Virus record (IMG/VR): IMGVR_UViG_3300048598_000587 | Coordinates: 1-37,317 of that record | Strand: one strand, 5' to 3' | Length of the DNA: 37,317 nt | Source of the DNA: a virus | Lineage: Duplodnaviria > Caudoviricetes | Shown: positions 21,435-37,317 of the stretch, piece by piece | Layout: every line of letters begins with the position of its first letter | How positions within the stretch are numbered: the stretch's first letter is position 1 | The notes under the pieces: model-generated | What the model was told of the DNA's origin: nothing | The model's database searches: none | The model's input: only the letters and a program-made list of their open reading frames with translations | Position numbers and translations under genes: made by a program

Positions 21435-22379
21435 CTAGGCGAGGGATTGCAGGCACAGGGCCTGTTTAGCCACGGCATCGACCAACTTGACGTCGAGCGG
21501 GCGGGACTTGCGGAATTCCTTGATGCCGGCAATGAGGCCCTCAACCAGCATCCGGGCGCTGCCTTTGCTGTAGGCGAACAGGCGGGCGATTACGTCGTCG
21601 CTGACCTCTTCGCTACCGAAGGCGGACTGCACCAGGGCTGCAGCGTCCTCGGCAGTGATACCGGTCACCGTGCCGGGCCAGAATCCGGTACGGCTGCGGA
21701 TCTGATCGAACTGGCCATGCTGCGGCTTGATCAAGCCCGAGAGGTGTTCGGTACCGGCCAGCACGATGCCGATGCCGGCAAGGTCGCGCACCCGGCGAAT
21801 GGTGTGCAGCTGGTTGGGGGTCAGCGTCTCGGCTTCATCGACGATCAGCAGCGCGTCGGTGTTCTTGAGGCTGGCGACCAGTTCGTCGAACTTGTCGGCG
21901 ATGCTGCCTTTACCGGTACCGACCACCAGGCGATAGAGCTGCTTGGTCAGGCTGGCCTGCGTCATGGTCGGCGCGGCCTCGATAAAGTAGGTATTCGGGT
22001 GCGTGGCAACGTAATACTTGAGCGCAAAGGTCTTGCCAGTGCCGACCCAGCCTGTCATGACAGCAAAGTTGCGATAGCGGCGCGCCATGTCGCAGGCGGT
22101 GTTGACCAGCTTGAAAACGCTGGTGTTAACCGGTGCCATGGCGTGGCCGCTGGTTTCGTCGGCGTGGCGCATGGCTTGCTCGACAGCCGCCAGCAGCTTG
22201 CTGGGGCTGGTCGCATACACGCCCTTGATGATCTGGTTGAGGCTGCTGCTGCTGATGCGAGCCAGGCGAGCCAGAGCAGCCTGGGTATATTCACGGGCGG
22301 CGATCCATGCCTTGATCGATTCGATCAGCGTGGCATCGGCAGCGGTGTAGTGGCTGGGCCACTGGATAGATTCAGTCAT
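21435..22379 (-). CDS. Transposition AAA+ ATPase (MuB-like) with N-terminal HTH
   Basis: Walker A GWVGTGKT, Walker B LLIVDEAE, QIRSR arginine finger; GAGG RBS before ATG 22379. Confidence 0.92.
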   Translation of the reverse strand: MTESIQWPSHYTAADATLIESIKAWIAAREYTQAALARLARISSSSLNQIIKGVYATSPSKLLAAVEQAMRHADETSGHAMAPVNTSVFKLVNTACDMARRYRNFAVMTGWVGTGKTFALKYYVATHPNTYFIEAAPTMTQASLTKQLYRLVVGTGKGSIADKFDELVASLKNTDALLIVDEAETLTPNQLHTIRRVRDLAGIGIVLAGTEHLSGLIKPQHGQFDQIRSRTGFWPGTVTGITAEDAAALVQSAFGSEEVSDDVIARLFAYSKGSARMLVEGLIAGIKEFRKSRPLDVKLVDAVAKQALCLQSLA

Positions 22380-26627: not shown

Positions 26628-26951
26628 ATGAACGAGCAATCCGTCAGCGAAGCGGCAACGATGGTCCCACCGCAAATCCTAGAAAACCTCAAGCAGCACA
26701 AGGCGCACCATCCAGACGTTACTTGCCTTGAATGTGGCTATAAAGGAATGATGGGAATTACGAGTGACGGTGCTCGTTTCGGGCTGTCGTTTTTTATCGC
26801 TCTACTACTGACCATCGGCTTTGCACCATTCGGCTTGTTCGGATTTATATGGTCTCCAGCCATCTTCGGATTCAGTTTTATCATTGCTTTACAGCGAACA
26901 GCAAAGCCAGTTGTGATGTGCCCGAACTGCATGAAAGAGCTCGCGATCTAG
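26628..26951 (+). CDS. Membrane protein with two CxxC knuckles flanking a hydrophobic hairpin
   Basis: CLECG - two hydrophobic segments - CPNC. Confidence 0.75.
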   Translation: MNEQSVSEAATMVPPQILENLKQHKAHHPDVTCLECGYKGMMGITSDGARFGLSFFIALLLTIGFAPFGLFGFIWSPAIFGFSFIIALQRTAKPVVMCPNCMKELAI

Positions 26952-26956
26952 TCCCA

Positions 26957-27361
26957 ATGCCAGAAACCTTAATCAAGCATCGGGATATCACCGGAGTCAC
27001 CCTGCATTTCACGTCAGAGCAGATCAATCGGATGATGCTCGCCATGCCCGATGAGCAAAGACGATTTGCGATGGCATTGGCTGAGACGATCAGGCAACCG
27101 CACGAAATCTGGCAGAGATGGGGCCGTGATATCCACGATCCTAAGCAATGGCGGCAGGTCAGGTGTTATCTGCAGTTTCTCGACCTTTCCGATACCGATG
27201 TCGAAGGCGGCTTCGGCGTCGCGCTCATGCAGTTCACTCACCTGGACGATTGGTGCTTATCAGGCTCTGGCGTGGTACTAGGTGACAAAGCGACCGTCAT
27301 GGAAAAAATCAACGCTGAGGCTCGCCAGGGAAGCATTGAATACTCTGTGAGCCAACAATGA
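26957..27361 (+). CDS. Stand-alone PBECR2-like nuclease-fold protein
   Basis: LAETIRQPHEIWQRW..D..DP..WR..R.Y aligns by eye with the C-terminal domain of MuF (35046-36314). Confidence 0.7.
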   Translation: MPETLIKHRDITGVTLHFTSEQINRMMLAMPDEQRRFAMALAETIRQPHEIWQRWGRDIHDPKQWRQVRCYLQFLDLSDTDVEGGFGVALMQFTHLDDWCLSGSGVVLGDKATVMEKINAEARQGSIEYSVSQQ

Positions 27362-32895: not shown

Positions 32896-34435
32896 AGAGA
32901 TCAAGGCGGCGCTGGCATCTGTAGCCAAGCGCGGGCTGGATGCCCTGCAGGCTGGCCCACGCTCAAGCGGGACGACGGCGAATTACATGTCGGTCAATAC
33001 CATTCCGCCGGCCCGGCTGGCCAGCGCTTTCGCTGCGGCCGATGAGGGCTATATCACCGACCAGGCGATGCTGTTCAACCTGATCGAAGAGCAGGATGCA
33101 CATATTTTTGCCGAGCTGGCCAAGCGCCGCCGGGCGGTGACCGGGCTGGGCTGGCAACTGGCGCCGCCGGAAGATGCCAATCAGTCCGAGATCGACCGAA
33201 CTCAGGAACTGGAAGACATCCTGCGCAAGATTCCGCGTTTCGAGGACATGCAATATGACCTCAGCGACGCGATCGGCAAGGGTATCTCGGCACATGAGAT
33301 CGAGTGGCAGACGGGTAGCACCTGGTACCCGAAAGGCTTCATCTGGGTGCCGCAGAGCGAGTTTCAGGTCGACCGCAAATCAGGGCAGCTGCAGTACGTC
33401 AAGAACGGCATGCCGGAAGCGTTGCGGGAATGGGGCTGGGTGGTCCATGAGCACCGGGCGAAGTCGGGCTACATCGAGCAGGCGGCGCTGTTCCGCGTGC
33501 TGGCCTGGACATATGCATACAAGGCTTACAACGCCCGCGACATGCAGCGTTTTCTGGAGATGTACGGCCTGCCGCTGCGCTTGGGCAAGTATCCGGCCGG
33601 CATCGATTCAAAGTCCCGCGACCAACTGCTGAAGGCGGTGCGCAACATTGGCAATGACGGCGCGGGCGTCGTGCCAGCCAACATGAGCATTGAATTCATC
33701 CAGGCCATGAAGAGCGGTTCGGTCGATGACTTCCTGAATGCTATTGCCTACTGGGAGCGCAAACAGTCGATGGCGATCCTCGGCGGCACGCTGACCAGCC
33801 AGGCCGACGGAAAGACCAGCACCAACGCGCTGGGCCATATTCACGACAAGGTCCGTCGCGAGATCATGCTGCACGACGTCGGCCAGATCGACCCGACGAT
33901 GAATAGCCAGGTCGTGGCGCCGATTGCGCTGATCAATGGCATGTTCCCGCCGGATCGATTGCCTGTGTTCGGTCACCTGACGCAAGAAAGCGTCGATCAG
34001 CAGAAGATGGTCGACGTGCTCGCCAAGGCGGCCGATATCGGCATGGAGATCGACGTGGAATACGCCCACGAGATCATGCAGCTGCCGCGCGCTGCCAAAG
34101 ATGCAAAGCTGCTGATCGCGACAAACAAGCCTACCGCCCCAGCCACAACCCCCAGCCCGGCAAACCCGGCCGAAACAGCCCTGACGCGCCTGGTCGCCCT
34201 GGCTACTGAGCCGGATATCACCACGGCCTACGGTAACCAGTTAGCCACGCTGTGCGCCCCATTCGAACAAGGCCTGATCCAGCAAATCAGCGCCATCGTT
34301 GCCGAGGCCGGCGACTTTGACGCGGCGCTGGAAGGTATCGCAGCGTTGCGGGCTGATCCGAAGTGGGCCGAAGCAATGCAACTGGGCATGGCTGCGGCGC
34401 ATATGGCTGGGCGGGCGGATGTGGGGGGTGAATGA
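32888..34435 (+). CDS. Portal protein (Mu gp29/DUF935)
   Basis: EEQDAHIFAEL.KRR.AV, FLEMYGLPLRLGKYP, ILGGTLTS and ALGHIHD.VR motifs. Confidence 0.95.
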   Translation: MIKEIKAALASVAKRGLDALQAGPRSSGTTANYMSVNTIPPARLASAFAAADEGYITDQAMLFNLIEEQDAHIFAELAKRRRAVTGLGWQLAPPEDANQSEIDRTQELEDILRKIPRFEDMQYDLSDAIGKGISAHEIEWQTGSTWYPKGFIWVPQSEFQVDRKSGQLQYVKNGMPEALREWGWVVHEHRAKSGYIEQAALFRVLAWTYAYKAYNARDMQRFLEMYGLPLRLGKYPAGIDSKSRDQLLKAVRNIGNDGAGVVPANMSIEFIQAMKSGSVDDFLNAIAYWERKQSMAILGGTLTSQADGKTSTNALGHIHDKVRREIMLHDVGQIDPTMNSQVVAPIALINGMFPPDRLPVFGHLTQESVDQQKMVDVLAKAADIGMEIDVEYAHEIMQLPRAAKDAKLLIATNKPTAPATTPSPANPAETALTRLVALATEPDITTAYGNQLATLCAPFEQGLIQQISAIVAEAGDFDAALEGIAALRADPKWAEAMQLGMAAAHMAGRADVGGE

Positions 34436-34626
34436 TGAAGATTGTCGATTTGATGAAGTGGCTGAAAGTCATCTCTATGGCTCCGCTCGCCCTACTTGTG
34501 CTCTCAGCTGCTCACTTTTGGGAGTGGTTTCACTTCGGACCATCTAGCCAAATTCTTCAAGTTACAAGGCAGGCGAAGCAGCGGCTTTTTCAATGGCGCA
34601 CCGATATCGAGAAAAGACAGTATTAA
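34432..34626 (+). CDS. Small hypothetical membrane protein
   Basis: ATGA overlap with the portal stop; one hydrophobic segment; AT-richer than flanks. Confidence 0.4.
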   Translation: MMKIVDLMKWLKVISMAPLALLVLSAAHFWEWFHFGPSSQILQVTRQAKQRLFQWRTDIEKRQY

Positions 34627-34672
34627 GCGGTAAGGCGGTTCCGACTCCAACCGCCACAACGAGGAAATGACC

Positions 34673-35041
34673 ATGAAAGAAAAAACTATTGAGCAGGAAA
34701 TTCAGGACAAGAATTTGACTGCGCCGCGCATCACGCCAGCAGATATTGAAGCGAATATCGACACTGAGGTTTATTTCACCGGAGAGCATGGCGTTGAAGG
34801 GGCCATGAACCGTAATGAACTACATGCAAGGCATCCGATTGGTATGAAAAGCGGCCATTTGAGCCTGCTTACATTCTGCGTCCTCGTCCTGAAGAACGGG
34901 TTCACGGTAACTGGCGAGAGTGCCTGCGCCAGTCCGGAGAACTTCGACGCCGAGATCGGTCGCAAGATCGCCCGTCAGAACGCAGTCCAGAAGATTTGGC
35001 CGCTGATGGGCTACGAACTCCGTAGCAAACTCGCAGCCTGA
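34673..35041 (+). CDS. Phage Gp49/Gp66 family protein
   Basis: TAPRITP.DI...LLTFCVLVLKNGFTVTGESACASPENFDAEIG...IWPLMGY. Confidence 0.85.
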   Translation: MKEKTIEQEIQDKNLTAPRITPADIEANIDTEVYFTGEHGVEGAMNRNELHARHPIGMKSGHLSLLTFCVLVLKNGFTVTGESACASPENFDAEIGRKIARQNAVQKIWPLMGYELRSKLAA

Positions 35042-35045
35042 ACAA

Positions 35046-36314
35046 ATGCCCGCGCCGGCCTACCTCCCTTTCTCCGAAGCCATCGACTTCTTCAAGGCGA
35101 AGATCAAGCTGCCTTCGTCCGGCTGGACGGATATCTGGCAGGAACAGCATTCGCATGCCTTCGTGGTGGCCGGCGCTGCCCATGATGACCTGGTCGGCGA
35201 CTTTTATAACGCCATTGCCCAGGCCAGGGAGGCCGGCGGTTACGACGTGTTCAAAAAGTCGTTCGGCGATATCGTCGCAAAGCATGGCTGGGCACATAAC
35301 GGCACGCCCGGCTGGCGCAGCAAGATCATCTACGACACGAACGTAACGCAGTCTTTCAACGCCGGACGCGAGAAGCAAATGCAGGCGGTCAAGCACTTGC
35401 GGCCCTATGGCATGTATCGCCACACAAGCATCGAACACCCGCGCCTTGAGCACAAGGCGTGGAACGGCCTGATATTGCCCTTGGATGATCCATGGTGGGA
35501 TACGCACACGCCGCAAAATGGCTGGGGCTGCAAATGCCGGAAGTACTCACTGTCCCGTGTCGAGGCCGAGCGGGAGTGGAAGAAGAACGGCAAGACCGGG
35601 CCAGACGAAGCGCCGCCCATCGAAATGGAAAAGGTTATCGTCGGCAAGAACGGCAGCAATCCGCGTGAAGTCTGGGTTCCCAAGGGCGTTGATCCCGGCT
35701 TCGCATACAACCCGGGCAAGGCCTGGCTTGAGCCGCACACGGTGCCGCCGCTGCAGGGTTACGACGCGGTATTGAAGGAGCGTAAAGCAGCCTGGCCGAC
35801 CGGCGTTGAGCGGCCGGCGCTGCCGGTGCCGACCAAGGTGCCGTCATCAGTTGTGTTGCCGGCCAGCACGGCGCCCGAGGTGGCCGTCACGGACTTCCTG
35901 GATGTGTTCGGCGCAACGCTGGACGAAGGCGCTGCATTCACCGATGCGGCCGGCAGCACGTTGGCGATCACAAAGGCCCTTTTCGTTAAAGGCAGCGACA
36001 AGGAAAGCGACAATTTCAAGTGGTTGGCAGAACCGGAAAAGGCCGACCGCATGAAGTACATCAACCTGCTGGCCATGACGCTGATCGAACCGGATGAAAT
36101 CTGGTGGGCTTGGGAAAAAGACGCCGGCGACCCGGCAAAGTGGCGATTGAAGCGGCGGTATGTGAAGGCTTTCGAGATCGACGGCGATAACCGCTATGGC
36201 GTCGGTGTTTTCGAATGGTCGAAAGCGGGATGGACGGGCGCTACAGTCTTCCCGGCCAGCAAAGAGAAGTACTTTGACCGGCAACGCATCGGCCGCCTGA
36301 TCTGGAAAAAGTAA
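35046..36314 (+). CDS. MuF (gp30) minor head protein with C-terminal PBECR2-like nuclease domain
   Basis: IIYDTNV..FNAGR, PRLEH..W.G..LP.DDPWW, PQNGWGCKC and GVDPGFAYNPG; C-terminal LAMTLIEPDEIW...RRYV...W.G.T.F...R.G. Confidence 0.88.
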   Translation: MPAPAYLPFSEAIDFFKAKIKLPSSGWTDIWQEQHSHAFVVAGAAHDDLVGDFYNAIAQAREAGGYDVFKKSFGDIVAKHGWAHNGTPGWRSKIIYDTNVTQSFNAGREKQMQAVKHLRPYGMYRHTSIEHPRLEHKAWNGLILPLDDPWWDTHTPQNGWGCKCRKYSLSRVEAEREWKKNGKTGPDEAPPIEMEKVIVGKNGSNPREVWVPKGVDPGFAYNPGKAWLEPHTVPPLQGYDAVLKERKAAWPTGVERPALPVPTKVPSSVVLPASTAPEVAVTDFLDVFGATLDEGAAFTDAAGSTLAITKALFVKGSDKESDNFKWLAEPEKADRMKYINLLAMTLIEPDEIWWAWEKDAGDPAKWRLKRRYVKAFEIDGDNRYGVGVFEWSKAGWTGATVFPASKEKYFDRQRIGRLIWKK

Positions 36315-36334
36315 CGCGGCCATGGAGGCCGCGT
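36305..36334 (-). terminator. Intrinsic terminator of the putative small RNA
   Basis: ACGCGGCC-TCCAT-GGCCGCGT-TAC-TTTTT on the minus strand. Confidence 0.55.
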
Positions 36335-36388
36335 CGCTTTACGGATCAGATATGGGGCAGTAGGCCGAAGCCAGTCTGACTGAACCGC
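36305..36388 (-). ncRNA. Putative ~84-nt structured small RNA convergent on muF
   Basis: Own promoter, nested stems with a C(UUCG)G tetraloop, and a terminator hairpin plus U5. Confidence 0.55.
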
Positions 36389-36394
36389 GAGGTA

Positions 36395-36423
36395 ACTATA
36401 TGCAATTCGACATCGAGTTTCAA
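36395..36423 (-). promoter_or_regulatory. Sigma70-type promoter, antisense to the start of G
   Basis: TTGAAA (36423-36418), 17 bp, TATAGT (36400-36395). Confidence 0.65.
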
Positions 36424-36912
36424 GCAGATCATTTATCCAGTGTGATGGATGCGATCCGCCGCGAGATCGCTACGCCGGAAGAAATGCTCGGCAGCATCGG
36501 CGCCTCGCTGTTCCAGGTAAATCAGGAGCGTCATGATCAAGGGCTAGATCCGGAAGGCAAGGCCTGGGAAAAATTGGCTGCTTCGACGATAGCAGCCGGT
36601 GGCCGAAAGGGTGGCCCGCTCAATAAAACTGGCCGCATGCTGGCTAATTTCCATTACCAGGTGCAAGGCGACAATCTGCGCTTGGGGTTCGATCAGGGCG
36701 ACGGCTTTAAGGCCATATTTCATCAGGATGGATCTCGCGCCCATGTCATCAGTCGCTCGCAAATGGTGGAAGGGTTTGGCTCCGTTCGCAGACGGATCAA
36801 TCATCCGGGTCTTCCCGCTCGCCCTCTGGTCGGCTTCCCGGAAAGTGATCGCCAGCTGGTCGGCGACGTGACGGCTGACCACATCACAGCAGTAATAAAC
36901 CGCCGTCGATGA
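36400..36912 (+). CDS. Virion morphogenesis protein (Mu gpG / tail S family)
   Basis: DPEGKAW..L, LNKTGRM, AIFHQDG and HPGLPARPLVG motifs. Confidence 0.9.
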   Translation: MQFDIEFQADHLSSVMDAIRREIATPEEMLGSIGASLFQVNQERHDQGLDPEGKAWEKLAASTIAAGGRKGGPLNKTGRMLANFHYQVQGDNLRLGFDQGDGFKAIFHQDGSRAHVISRSQMVEGFGSVRRRINHPGLPARPLVGFPESDRQLVGDVTADHITAVINRRR

Positions 36913-36915
36913 TCA

Positions 36916-37117
36916 TTTAAACGGTCTTTGAATGGGGTATTTCCAGTAACGCGCCGGGTAATTTCCCGTACTTGTCGCCCGAATATCCCGTACTTTTACC
37001 CCAGAACTGTCCGGAAATCAGAATTCCCGCCCGAGTACCCCAAACCCAATAACCACGGCCCGTTCAGCCCGATTCCCGCCCGTGAAACCCATCCGGTTTC
37101 TCCCCCCTCCCTACTCA
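36916..37117. repeat. Prophage right end with short repeats (candidate transposase-binding sites)
   Basis: TCCCGTACTT at 36964 and 36986; ATTCCCGCCCG at 37023 and 37072; terminus either ...CCCTA (37113) or ...CTCA (37117). Confidence 0.6.
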
Positions 37118-37317
37118 TCGGTCGGGTGCTCAACATGTATCCGGTTGAATCGGCTGCCGTCACCGCCTGCCACAGCGGCCTCGGCGGCACCGGCGACGTC
37201 GCCATCCTCTCCGCCTGCAACCGGATGGGCCTGATCCCCTTCGCCCAGATCTCCACCCGCATCGGTGGTGCCTTCATGGTCGTGTTCGGCGTATTCGCCA
37301 TCAAGTTCTTCGGCTGA
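37114..37317 (+). pseudogene. 3' fragment of host 2-hydroxycarboxylate transporter (CitS/MaeN family), interrupted by the prophage
   Basis: LIGRVLNMYPVESA...CHSGLGGTGDVAILSA.NRM.L.PFAQISTRIGG is the 2-HCT C-terminal signature. Confidence 0.85.

Follow-up and report, generated by a model that had tools for sequence, protein, structure and literature searches.

A conserved, predicted small RNA convergent on MuF-PBECR2 genes of Mu-like phages: a candidate antitoxin for a putative virion-carried RNase

In the Caudoviricetes record IMGVR_UViG_3300048598_000587, all 37,317 nucleotides (nt) of which make up the window analysed here, a small RNA is predicted on the minus strand between muF, the gene of a Mu gpF-like head protein that ends in a PBECR2 domain, and the virion morphogenesis gene G. 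The minus-strand unit is real and conserved. Moreover, comparison of homologous loci suggests that the RNA is probably a type III-like antitoxin for a virion-carried ribonuclease (RNase) of the BECR fold. This reading is favoured because the RNA stands in the usual place of an immunity open reading frame (ORF) and is retained only where the catalytic-type residues are intact, and because hosts without the enzyme, which carry one RNA per class, would profit from them only if the RNA protects.

A minus-strand unit between muF and G

The features of the region are as follows.

35046..36314, plus strand: muF, Mu gpF-like head protein with C-terminal PBECR2 (422 amino acids (aa); PF04233 at aa 87-165, PF18810 at aa 283-421)
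36400..36912, plus strand: G, virion morphogenesis (PF05069, profile match), with the antisense promoter inside it
36418..36423, minus strand: -35 box TTGAAA within G codons 7-8 (sequence match; Gln-codon constraint)
36395..36400, minus strand: -10 box TATAGT, overlapping the A of G's ATG (sequence match; conserved in homologues)
36306..36388, minus strand: predicted small RNA of class A, ~83 nt (promoter and terminator, folding, conservation in homologues)
36341..36388, minus strand: RNA 5' domain (class-A homologue fold)
36388-36380 with 36349-36341, minus strand: P1 outer stem, GCGGUUCAG/CUGAUCCGU
36378-36376 with 36360-36358, minus strand: CAG/CUG pairing (class-A alignment)
36372-36363, minus strand: GGC-UUCG-GCC hairpin (class-A alignment)
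36357-36350, minus strand: single strand CCCCAUAU (CCAA is enriched in this strand across homologues)
36306..36335, minus strand: intrinsic terminator hairpin and U run (stem 36335-36313, five-U run 36310-36306)

An earlier note, made from the sequence alone, had described this unit as a candidate RNA antitoxin lying wholly within the 85-bp gap between the muF stop (36314) and the G start (36400). The RNA sequence that it quoted is exact, and both its promoter and its terminator with five U residues hold; TTGAAA-17-TATAGT is the sole promoter-like site in 34000-37317, with 10/12 consensus matches, although shuffles average 1.2, so that the promoter taken by itself is modest evidence. The unit nevertheless overruns the gap at both ends, as the -35 box lies in G, the -10 box on its ATG and the U run in the last codons of muF. 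No protein immunity gene follows muF, as had been stated; the stretch between muF and G is free of ORFs. When both strands of the whole window were scored with the caller described below, three hits were obtained, of which the muF-G locus was the best. At gathering score, Rfam covariance models matched nothing in the window, and when the element itself was compared at 10 loci there was no match at E values up to 5.

Conservation across homologous loci

Homologous loci were drawn from viral contigs, genomes and annotated records, giving 304 unique loci and, after merging at 90% protein identity, 242. A caller that scores the terminator, the -10 and -35 boxes and the closing stem, leaving the pseudoknot described below unscored, passes the minus strand at 164/236 loci, compared with 2/236 for the plus strand, 0/233 for coding windows and 3/236 for dinucleotide shuffles, and a plus-strand reading of the RNA was rejected on that count. 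The direction of G-U wobbles (51 vs 46 in the kissing helix, 115 vs 73 in P1) is not decisive as to strand. The distance from -10 to terminator is 46-75 nt, and P1 begins ~6-7 nt past the -10; in one subgroup, the promoter has shifted to TTGCAT-16-TATAAT with the distance to P1 unchanged. Within G, the Gln codon that bears the TTG of the -35 box is CAA in 41/41 loci, against 109/289 of the other Gln codons of the same genes, and by this codon usage the -35 box in G is under synonymous constraint. In RNA-less loci, that codon is CAG in L065, with CAA retained in L019 and L056.

The element is present in the named phages RcapMu, RR1-B and YO374_1, and six loci (L470, L471, L021, L022, L182, L349) have a longer or two-hairpin form. 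In RcapMu, carried by Rhodobacter capsulatus SB1003, the predicted minus-strand RNA is placed at ~21520-21580 of NC_016165.1. At seven loci (L029, L049, L209, L266, L282, L379, L430) genes have been inserted between muF and the RNA, and the RNA and its promoter stay together. It has also been found where the gene after muF is not G; a tie to G rather than to muF was rejected, as the RNA stands before other genes and is missing before G in RNA-less loci. The earlier note had proposed to look behind muF-PBECR2 genes for a conserved antisense promoter and covariation, and both exist; equal presence behind muF genes lacking the domain, which it had said would speak against the idea, was not observed. 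In a control set of 30 muF loci, 5 of them cut or with no ORF found, only 2 of the 15 scored loci without a BECR-like end passed the caller, and these narrowly (16.3, 16.4).

Five Ralstonia-type loci (L019, L056, L067, L089, L225) appear half-decayed: the terminator is still there, but the -10, the 5' domain of the RNA and K325 of the protein are gone. These retained terminators would fit an insulating terminator accompanied by a chance promoter, which belongs with a second proposal, namely that the RNA is a product matured by PBECR2 with a job of its own, for instance to act as decoy of a host nuclease that attacks anticodons or acceptor stems; a hairpin followed by CCA does resemble a tRNA end. 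Taken together, these proposals are very unlikely, because a bare terminator leaves the conserved promoter, P1, the pseudoknot and the link to catalytic residues unexplained, and the host arrays described below are more readily understood as protection from a phage enzyme than as assistance to the phage.

Structure and covariation of the RNA

The homologues share a common plan, in which a P1 outer stem encloses an asymmetric loop with a single-stranded 3' strand and an inner hairpin, followed by the terminator. Folding z-scores in the window are -5.1 for the whole unit, -4.7 for the terminator alone and -1.6 for the 5' domain alone, so single-sequence folding is no proof of the 5' domain, for which conservation supplies the proof. 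A first fold model from 14 sequences showed nothing clear. Outside class A, at least 5 Watson-Crick pairs join the inner loop to that of the terminator in 121/139 cognate combinations, against 592/2058 non-cognate ones, and this loop-loop pseudoknot covaries, with 90 different helices seen. The terminator loop is thus the pseudoknot partner in most homologues but not in the class of the window, where a kissing pair was rejected (1/26 vs 14/371) and a stable loop caps the inner hairpin instead.

In an alignment of 33 class-A sequences, P1, the inner hairpin, the CAG/CUG pairing and the terminator show two-sided change at 16/26 pairs, against 8.1 in shuffles; CAG/CUG itself is invariant, as are some unpaired bases. 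The fold given in the earlier note therefore stands in part: its GGC-UUCG-GCC hairpin and terminator are supported, while its UCAGA/UCUGA register shows no two-sided change, with one pair broken in 22/33 sequences, and its CAGU/ACUG pairing shows no two-sided change either. A few class-A members pair perfectly in the UCAGA/UCUGA register, which leaves the inner register not entirely settled. CCAA is found in the unpaired 3' strand at 73/165 loci, compared with 1/165 for the 5' segment and an average of 21 for shuffles; the window has CCCCA.

The RNA is complementary to the intergenic mRNA and to ~9 nt of muF. A type I-like antisense action is conceivable on these grounds, in which the RNA would pair with the late muF-G mRNA over the gap, cause its decay and silence a leaky toxin in the lysogen; the convergent arrangement with full complementarity to the intergenic mRNA suits this, and an antisense RNA would likewise vanish when the toxin decays. 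However, the ribosome-binding sites of muF and G are both left uncovered, the loops are held in the pseudoknot in the 121/139 non-A loci, as much as ~1 kb separates the RNA from the muF stop where a moron is present, and class A has invariant unpaired bases. In addition, orphan copies in hosts would require a near-identical target mRNA, and antisense control is therefore considered unlikely.

The PBECR2 domain

Three features of the protein are relevant to the RNA.

35892..36308, plus strand: PBECR2 domain, predicted BECR-fold RNase (PF18810; model pLDDT 91; weak Foldseek match)
36018..36050, plus strand: K325, K332 and R335, loop predicted to serve in catalysis or RNA binding (lost from homologues without the RNA)
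36243..36245, plus strand: T400, predicted catalytic Thr in the last core strand (residue comparison across loci)

The PF18810 profile matches muF at 105.7 bits (E 2e-30), against a curated cut-off of 27.1, and PBECR2 and Phage_Mu_F are the only Pfam matches in the protein, with no ToxN-like family among them. PBECR domains have a conserved Thr/Ser and an Arg or His (PMC5512222), and the PBECR2 active site, His or Arg plus a C-terminal Thr/Ser, is represented here by R335 and T400, together with K325, in a subgroup without the His. A sequence search of the PDB gave no match. The best Foldseek match of the domain model, at a weak E of 0.025, is 6cp9, which is CdiA-CT Kp342, a CDI toxin of the BECR type with a Lys-Tyr-Thr site that cuts tRNA near the CCA end (PMC9086364). 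If the alignment is ungapped from its ends, T400 would align with T255 of Kp342 and T330 of EC3006. A second, stand-alone PBECR2-like gene lies at 26849-27361 on the plus strand (likely start 26957, E 3e-6); the K/K/R/T residues are missing from it and no RNA element follows it, which is consistent with the link described next.

The RNA is kept with intact catalytic-type residues

Of the 242 loci, 5 had no anchor and were dropped. Among the rest, the caller scored 172 as RNA-bearing, 7 of which have the RNA displaced behind an inserted gene; inspection by eye added 37 more and classed 24 as RNA-less and 4 as unclear. Curation by eye was adopted because the automatic 'no room' class was unreliable (7/30 with spurious ORFs). 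The triad of K325, R335 (or H) and T400 (or S) is complete at 209/209 RNA-bearing loci and at 1/24 RNA-less ones, whereas the structural core (PDEIW, RRY, GWxG, RxG) is kept in both groups alike. The automatic calls alone give K325 in 99% of 173 RNA-bearing vs 30% of 30 RNA-less loci.

The RNA-less loci fall into 11 clades, i.e. 11 separate losses. On a tree built without the trait columns, there are 8 independent pairs, of which 7-8 agree and 0 are opposite (p ~0.008), and sister contrasts are provided by L263/L255, L356-360/L361-372 and L176/the L090 clade. RNA traces with a decayed gene were found only in the pseudogenes L236, L487 and L490. A further sample was drawn from Pfam profile matches in 301 genomes, with 22 of 23 places examined: 9 pass the caller, 6 more have the RNA by eye, 2 are unclear and 3 are gene fragments, and L481 is decayed and has no RNA. 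The positives of this sample include His-type and stand-alone PBECR2 genes.

RNA units without a phage gene

A search of metagenomes with the class-A RNA pattern gave 20 loci, 14 of which (11 distinct) have an intact PBECR2 upstream. Among the other six, one repeats the layout with a gene inserted between muF and the RNA, another is rearranged next to G, and the remaining four have no phage genes. These four are arrays in which units of classes A, B and C stand in tandem, every unit having a -10 to itself. The arrays are flanked by a topoisomerase-subunit (parC-like) gene on one side and a phosphoribosyltransferase (comF-like) or MmeI-like gene on the other.

L524:1500-1880 (G918:C13), L529, L530, L527, L499, L505, L510 and L516: orphan tandem arrays, bacterial chromosome

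The array is present in genome G918, with partial versions in G968, G991 and at a second G918 site beside another MmeI-like gene; L505 and L524 are 98% identical. The pattern matches in 8/201 genomes of the family, and matches outside arrays adjoin PBECR2 genes or remnants. No nuclease gene was found near the arrays, and PBECR2 occurs only in G918's own prophage and not in G968 or G991, which are possibly incomplete. These arrays suggest a host defence built from captured antidote RNAs.

Proposed mechanism and its alternatives

In the proposed mechanism, MuF-PBECR2 would be an active toxic RNase, packaged in the virion and released into the next host. The ~83-nt RNA would bind and block the predicted RNase at the MuF end, lying in the active site, perhaps through a CCA(A)-like single strand beside a hairpin that mimics a tRNA 3' end. 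Transcription of the unit would be carried out by the host polymerase with no need for Mor, both in lysogens and as soon as the DNA has entered a cell. As an antidote RNA requires no translation, a cell that keeps the phage DNA would survive and a cell that destroys it would be poisoned; hosts, in turn, may gather one RNA per class for protection. Of the roles offered in the earlier note, neutralisation is well supported by comparison, given the 11 independent losses, the replacement of the immunity ORF by the RNA and the orphan host arrays.

Several observations weigh against an antitoxin. RNA states at 61/233 loci were called by eye with the protein visible, not blind; one RNA-less locus with an intact triad exists among the 24 (L315, which has lost K332); and residues are intact without a clear RNA in the unclear loci L150, L178, L347 and L424, as well as in L479 of the Pfam-drawn sample. 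The arrays all come from one close lineage and hence count as few events, perhaps one or two, and they could be prophage debris. The likeness to known tRNases is weak in the VIA structure comparison (Z 3.2, rmsd 4.1, 92 residues), and no more than 73/165 loci have CCAA. Finally, full-length RNA-bearing loci with a decayed triad number 0/209, though an antidote model allows them, and the correlation of residues with RNA, taken alone, also fits a cofactor.

A cofactor or guide would be packaged on MuF-PBECR2 and needed for its activity or its choice of target, e.g. host defence RNAs. The joint loss of RNA and catalytic residues and the absence of dead-site RNA-bearing loci accord with this, as does the tracking of the protein tree by RNA class (9 changes vs at least 20 when shuffled), and Iyer et al. 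proposed mRNA or CRISPR RNA as PBECR targets (PMC5512222). Nonetheless, the RNA has no free variable segment, as its variable bases are paired inside it, which leaves the 'guide' option of the earlier note unsupported, and a host would have no reason to collect three classes without an enzyme. A role as cofactor or guide is thus rather improbable, and the RNA antitoxin remains the reading that we prefer.

Other BECR-type ends and the genomic setting

All 9 loci with other BECR-like ends failed the caller. By eye, each has a structured element and a minus-strand -10; in MuF proteins with PBECR3 or unnamed BECR-like ends, these follow the stop. In L443, L449, L440 and L447, C-terminal BECR-like domains absent from Pfam are followed by a ~100-nt structured element, with a loop pseudoknot seen in L443 and L449. 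The PBECR3 loci L492 (G188:C13, after 7041), L456, L457, L496, L497 and L523 have a common downstream RNA-like motif of their own, and in a 1986-aa polyvalent protein, a PBECR3-type element lies inside the coding linker right after PBECR3. In 401 genomes, the bare PBECR3 RNA motif is no more frequent than expected by chance, and 2 of its 5 hits are real. It is conceivable, though we hold it only tentatively and would sooner doubt it, that PBECR2 of the Arg and His types, PBECR3 and the polyvalent ones are widespread virion-delivered RNase toxins with convergent RNA immunity, serving phages as a dead-man's switch against DNA-destroying hosts, and that bacteria collect antidote arrays beside restriction-modification genes.

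The window is a complete Mu-like provirus record, in which a profile search of the proteins found portal, terminase-region, transposase, Mor, I and T genes. The portal-muF interval (34432-35041, plus strand) contains a 64-aa ORF and a gene of the Gp49/Sf6 gp66 family. G is the final phage gene; an apparent element end lies directly 3' of it (36913-37135), followed by host-like DNA with a 2HCT transporter fragment, and I and T are on the opposite arm.

Comparison with known systems

The main texts of the papers that describe PBECR with the same domain, PF18810 (PMC5512222; bioRxiv 10.64898/2026.08.28.747851), contain neither 'noncoding' nor 'non-coding', and the portions consulted name no RNA partner. 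BECR and MuF do not occur in a 2026 preprint on the mining of non-coding RNAs, and a literature search, with supplements and subscription journals outside its scope, found no report of a PBECR2-RNA pairing. Published lists of candidate RNAs could hold these motifs. The pairing is apparently undescribed so far. It makes PBECR function open to direct testing, as nature supplies pairs of active and decayed domains, RNA classes that are cognate or non-cognate, and in RcapMu a culturable model from a non-pathogen.

As described for ToxIN, CptIN and TenpIN (PMC8860590), a predicted RNase is accompanied here by a small non-coding RNA with a sigma70-like promoter and a terminator, and a pseudoknot like theirs is found in the non-A homologues (121/139), though in 1/26 of the window's class A. 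In ToxIN-type systems, according to the same account, the RNA lies upstream in one operon with the terminator between, consists of tandem repeats and opposes a ToxN-like toxin. Here, in contrast, it lies downstream, convergent and with its own promoter, each muF locus has a single unit (units in tandem are confined to the orphan host arrays, where they are of different classes), and the toxin would be a BECR-family domain fused to a virion protein; moreover, it is the terminator loop itself that forms the pseudoknot. With layout, repeats and toxin family all different, the system is not a ToxIN-type member, and would extend the RNA antitoxins by both a toxin family and a gene layout that are new to them. 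AbiF and AvcID (10.1101/2025.04.15.648962; PMC10511110) are similar in placing a non-repeat RNA antitoxin beside an enzyme that attacks nucleic acids, but are reported as cell-defence systems with HEPN or deaminase toxins that are not virion-carried, and the RNA here, without an Rfam match, is unrelated to theirs.

CdiA-CT Kp342 and EC3006, the best though weak fold matches, share a Lys/Arg/Thr-type site and are reported to cleave tRNA behind C71 or C72, close to its CCA end; unlike PBECR2 here, they have protein immunity partners (PMC9086364). The MuF polymorphic toxins (PMC5576092) likewise have a MuF N-terminus after the portal gene and a toxin-like C-terminus, with two small genes between portal and muF in the present case. 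In that account, an immunity ORF accompanies 89.4% of 191 MuF toxins, whereas in the window none lies directly downstream and the RNA is in its place. If this RNA is indeed the antidote, it would represent RNA immunity for a delivered polymorphic toxin, and would explain why immunity genes are missing beside PBECR-tipped MuF and polyvalent proteins.
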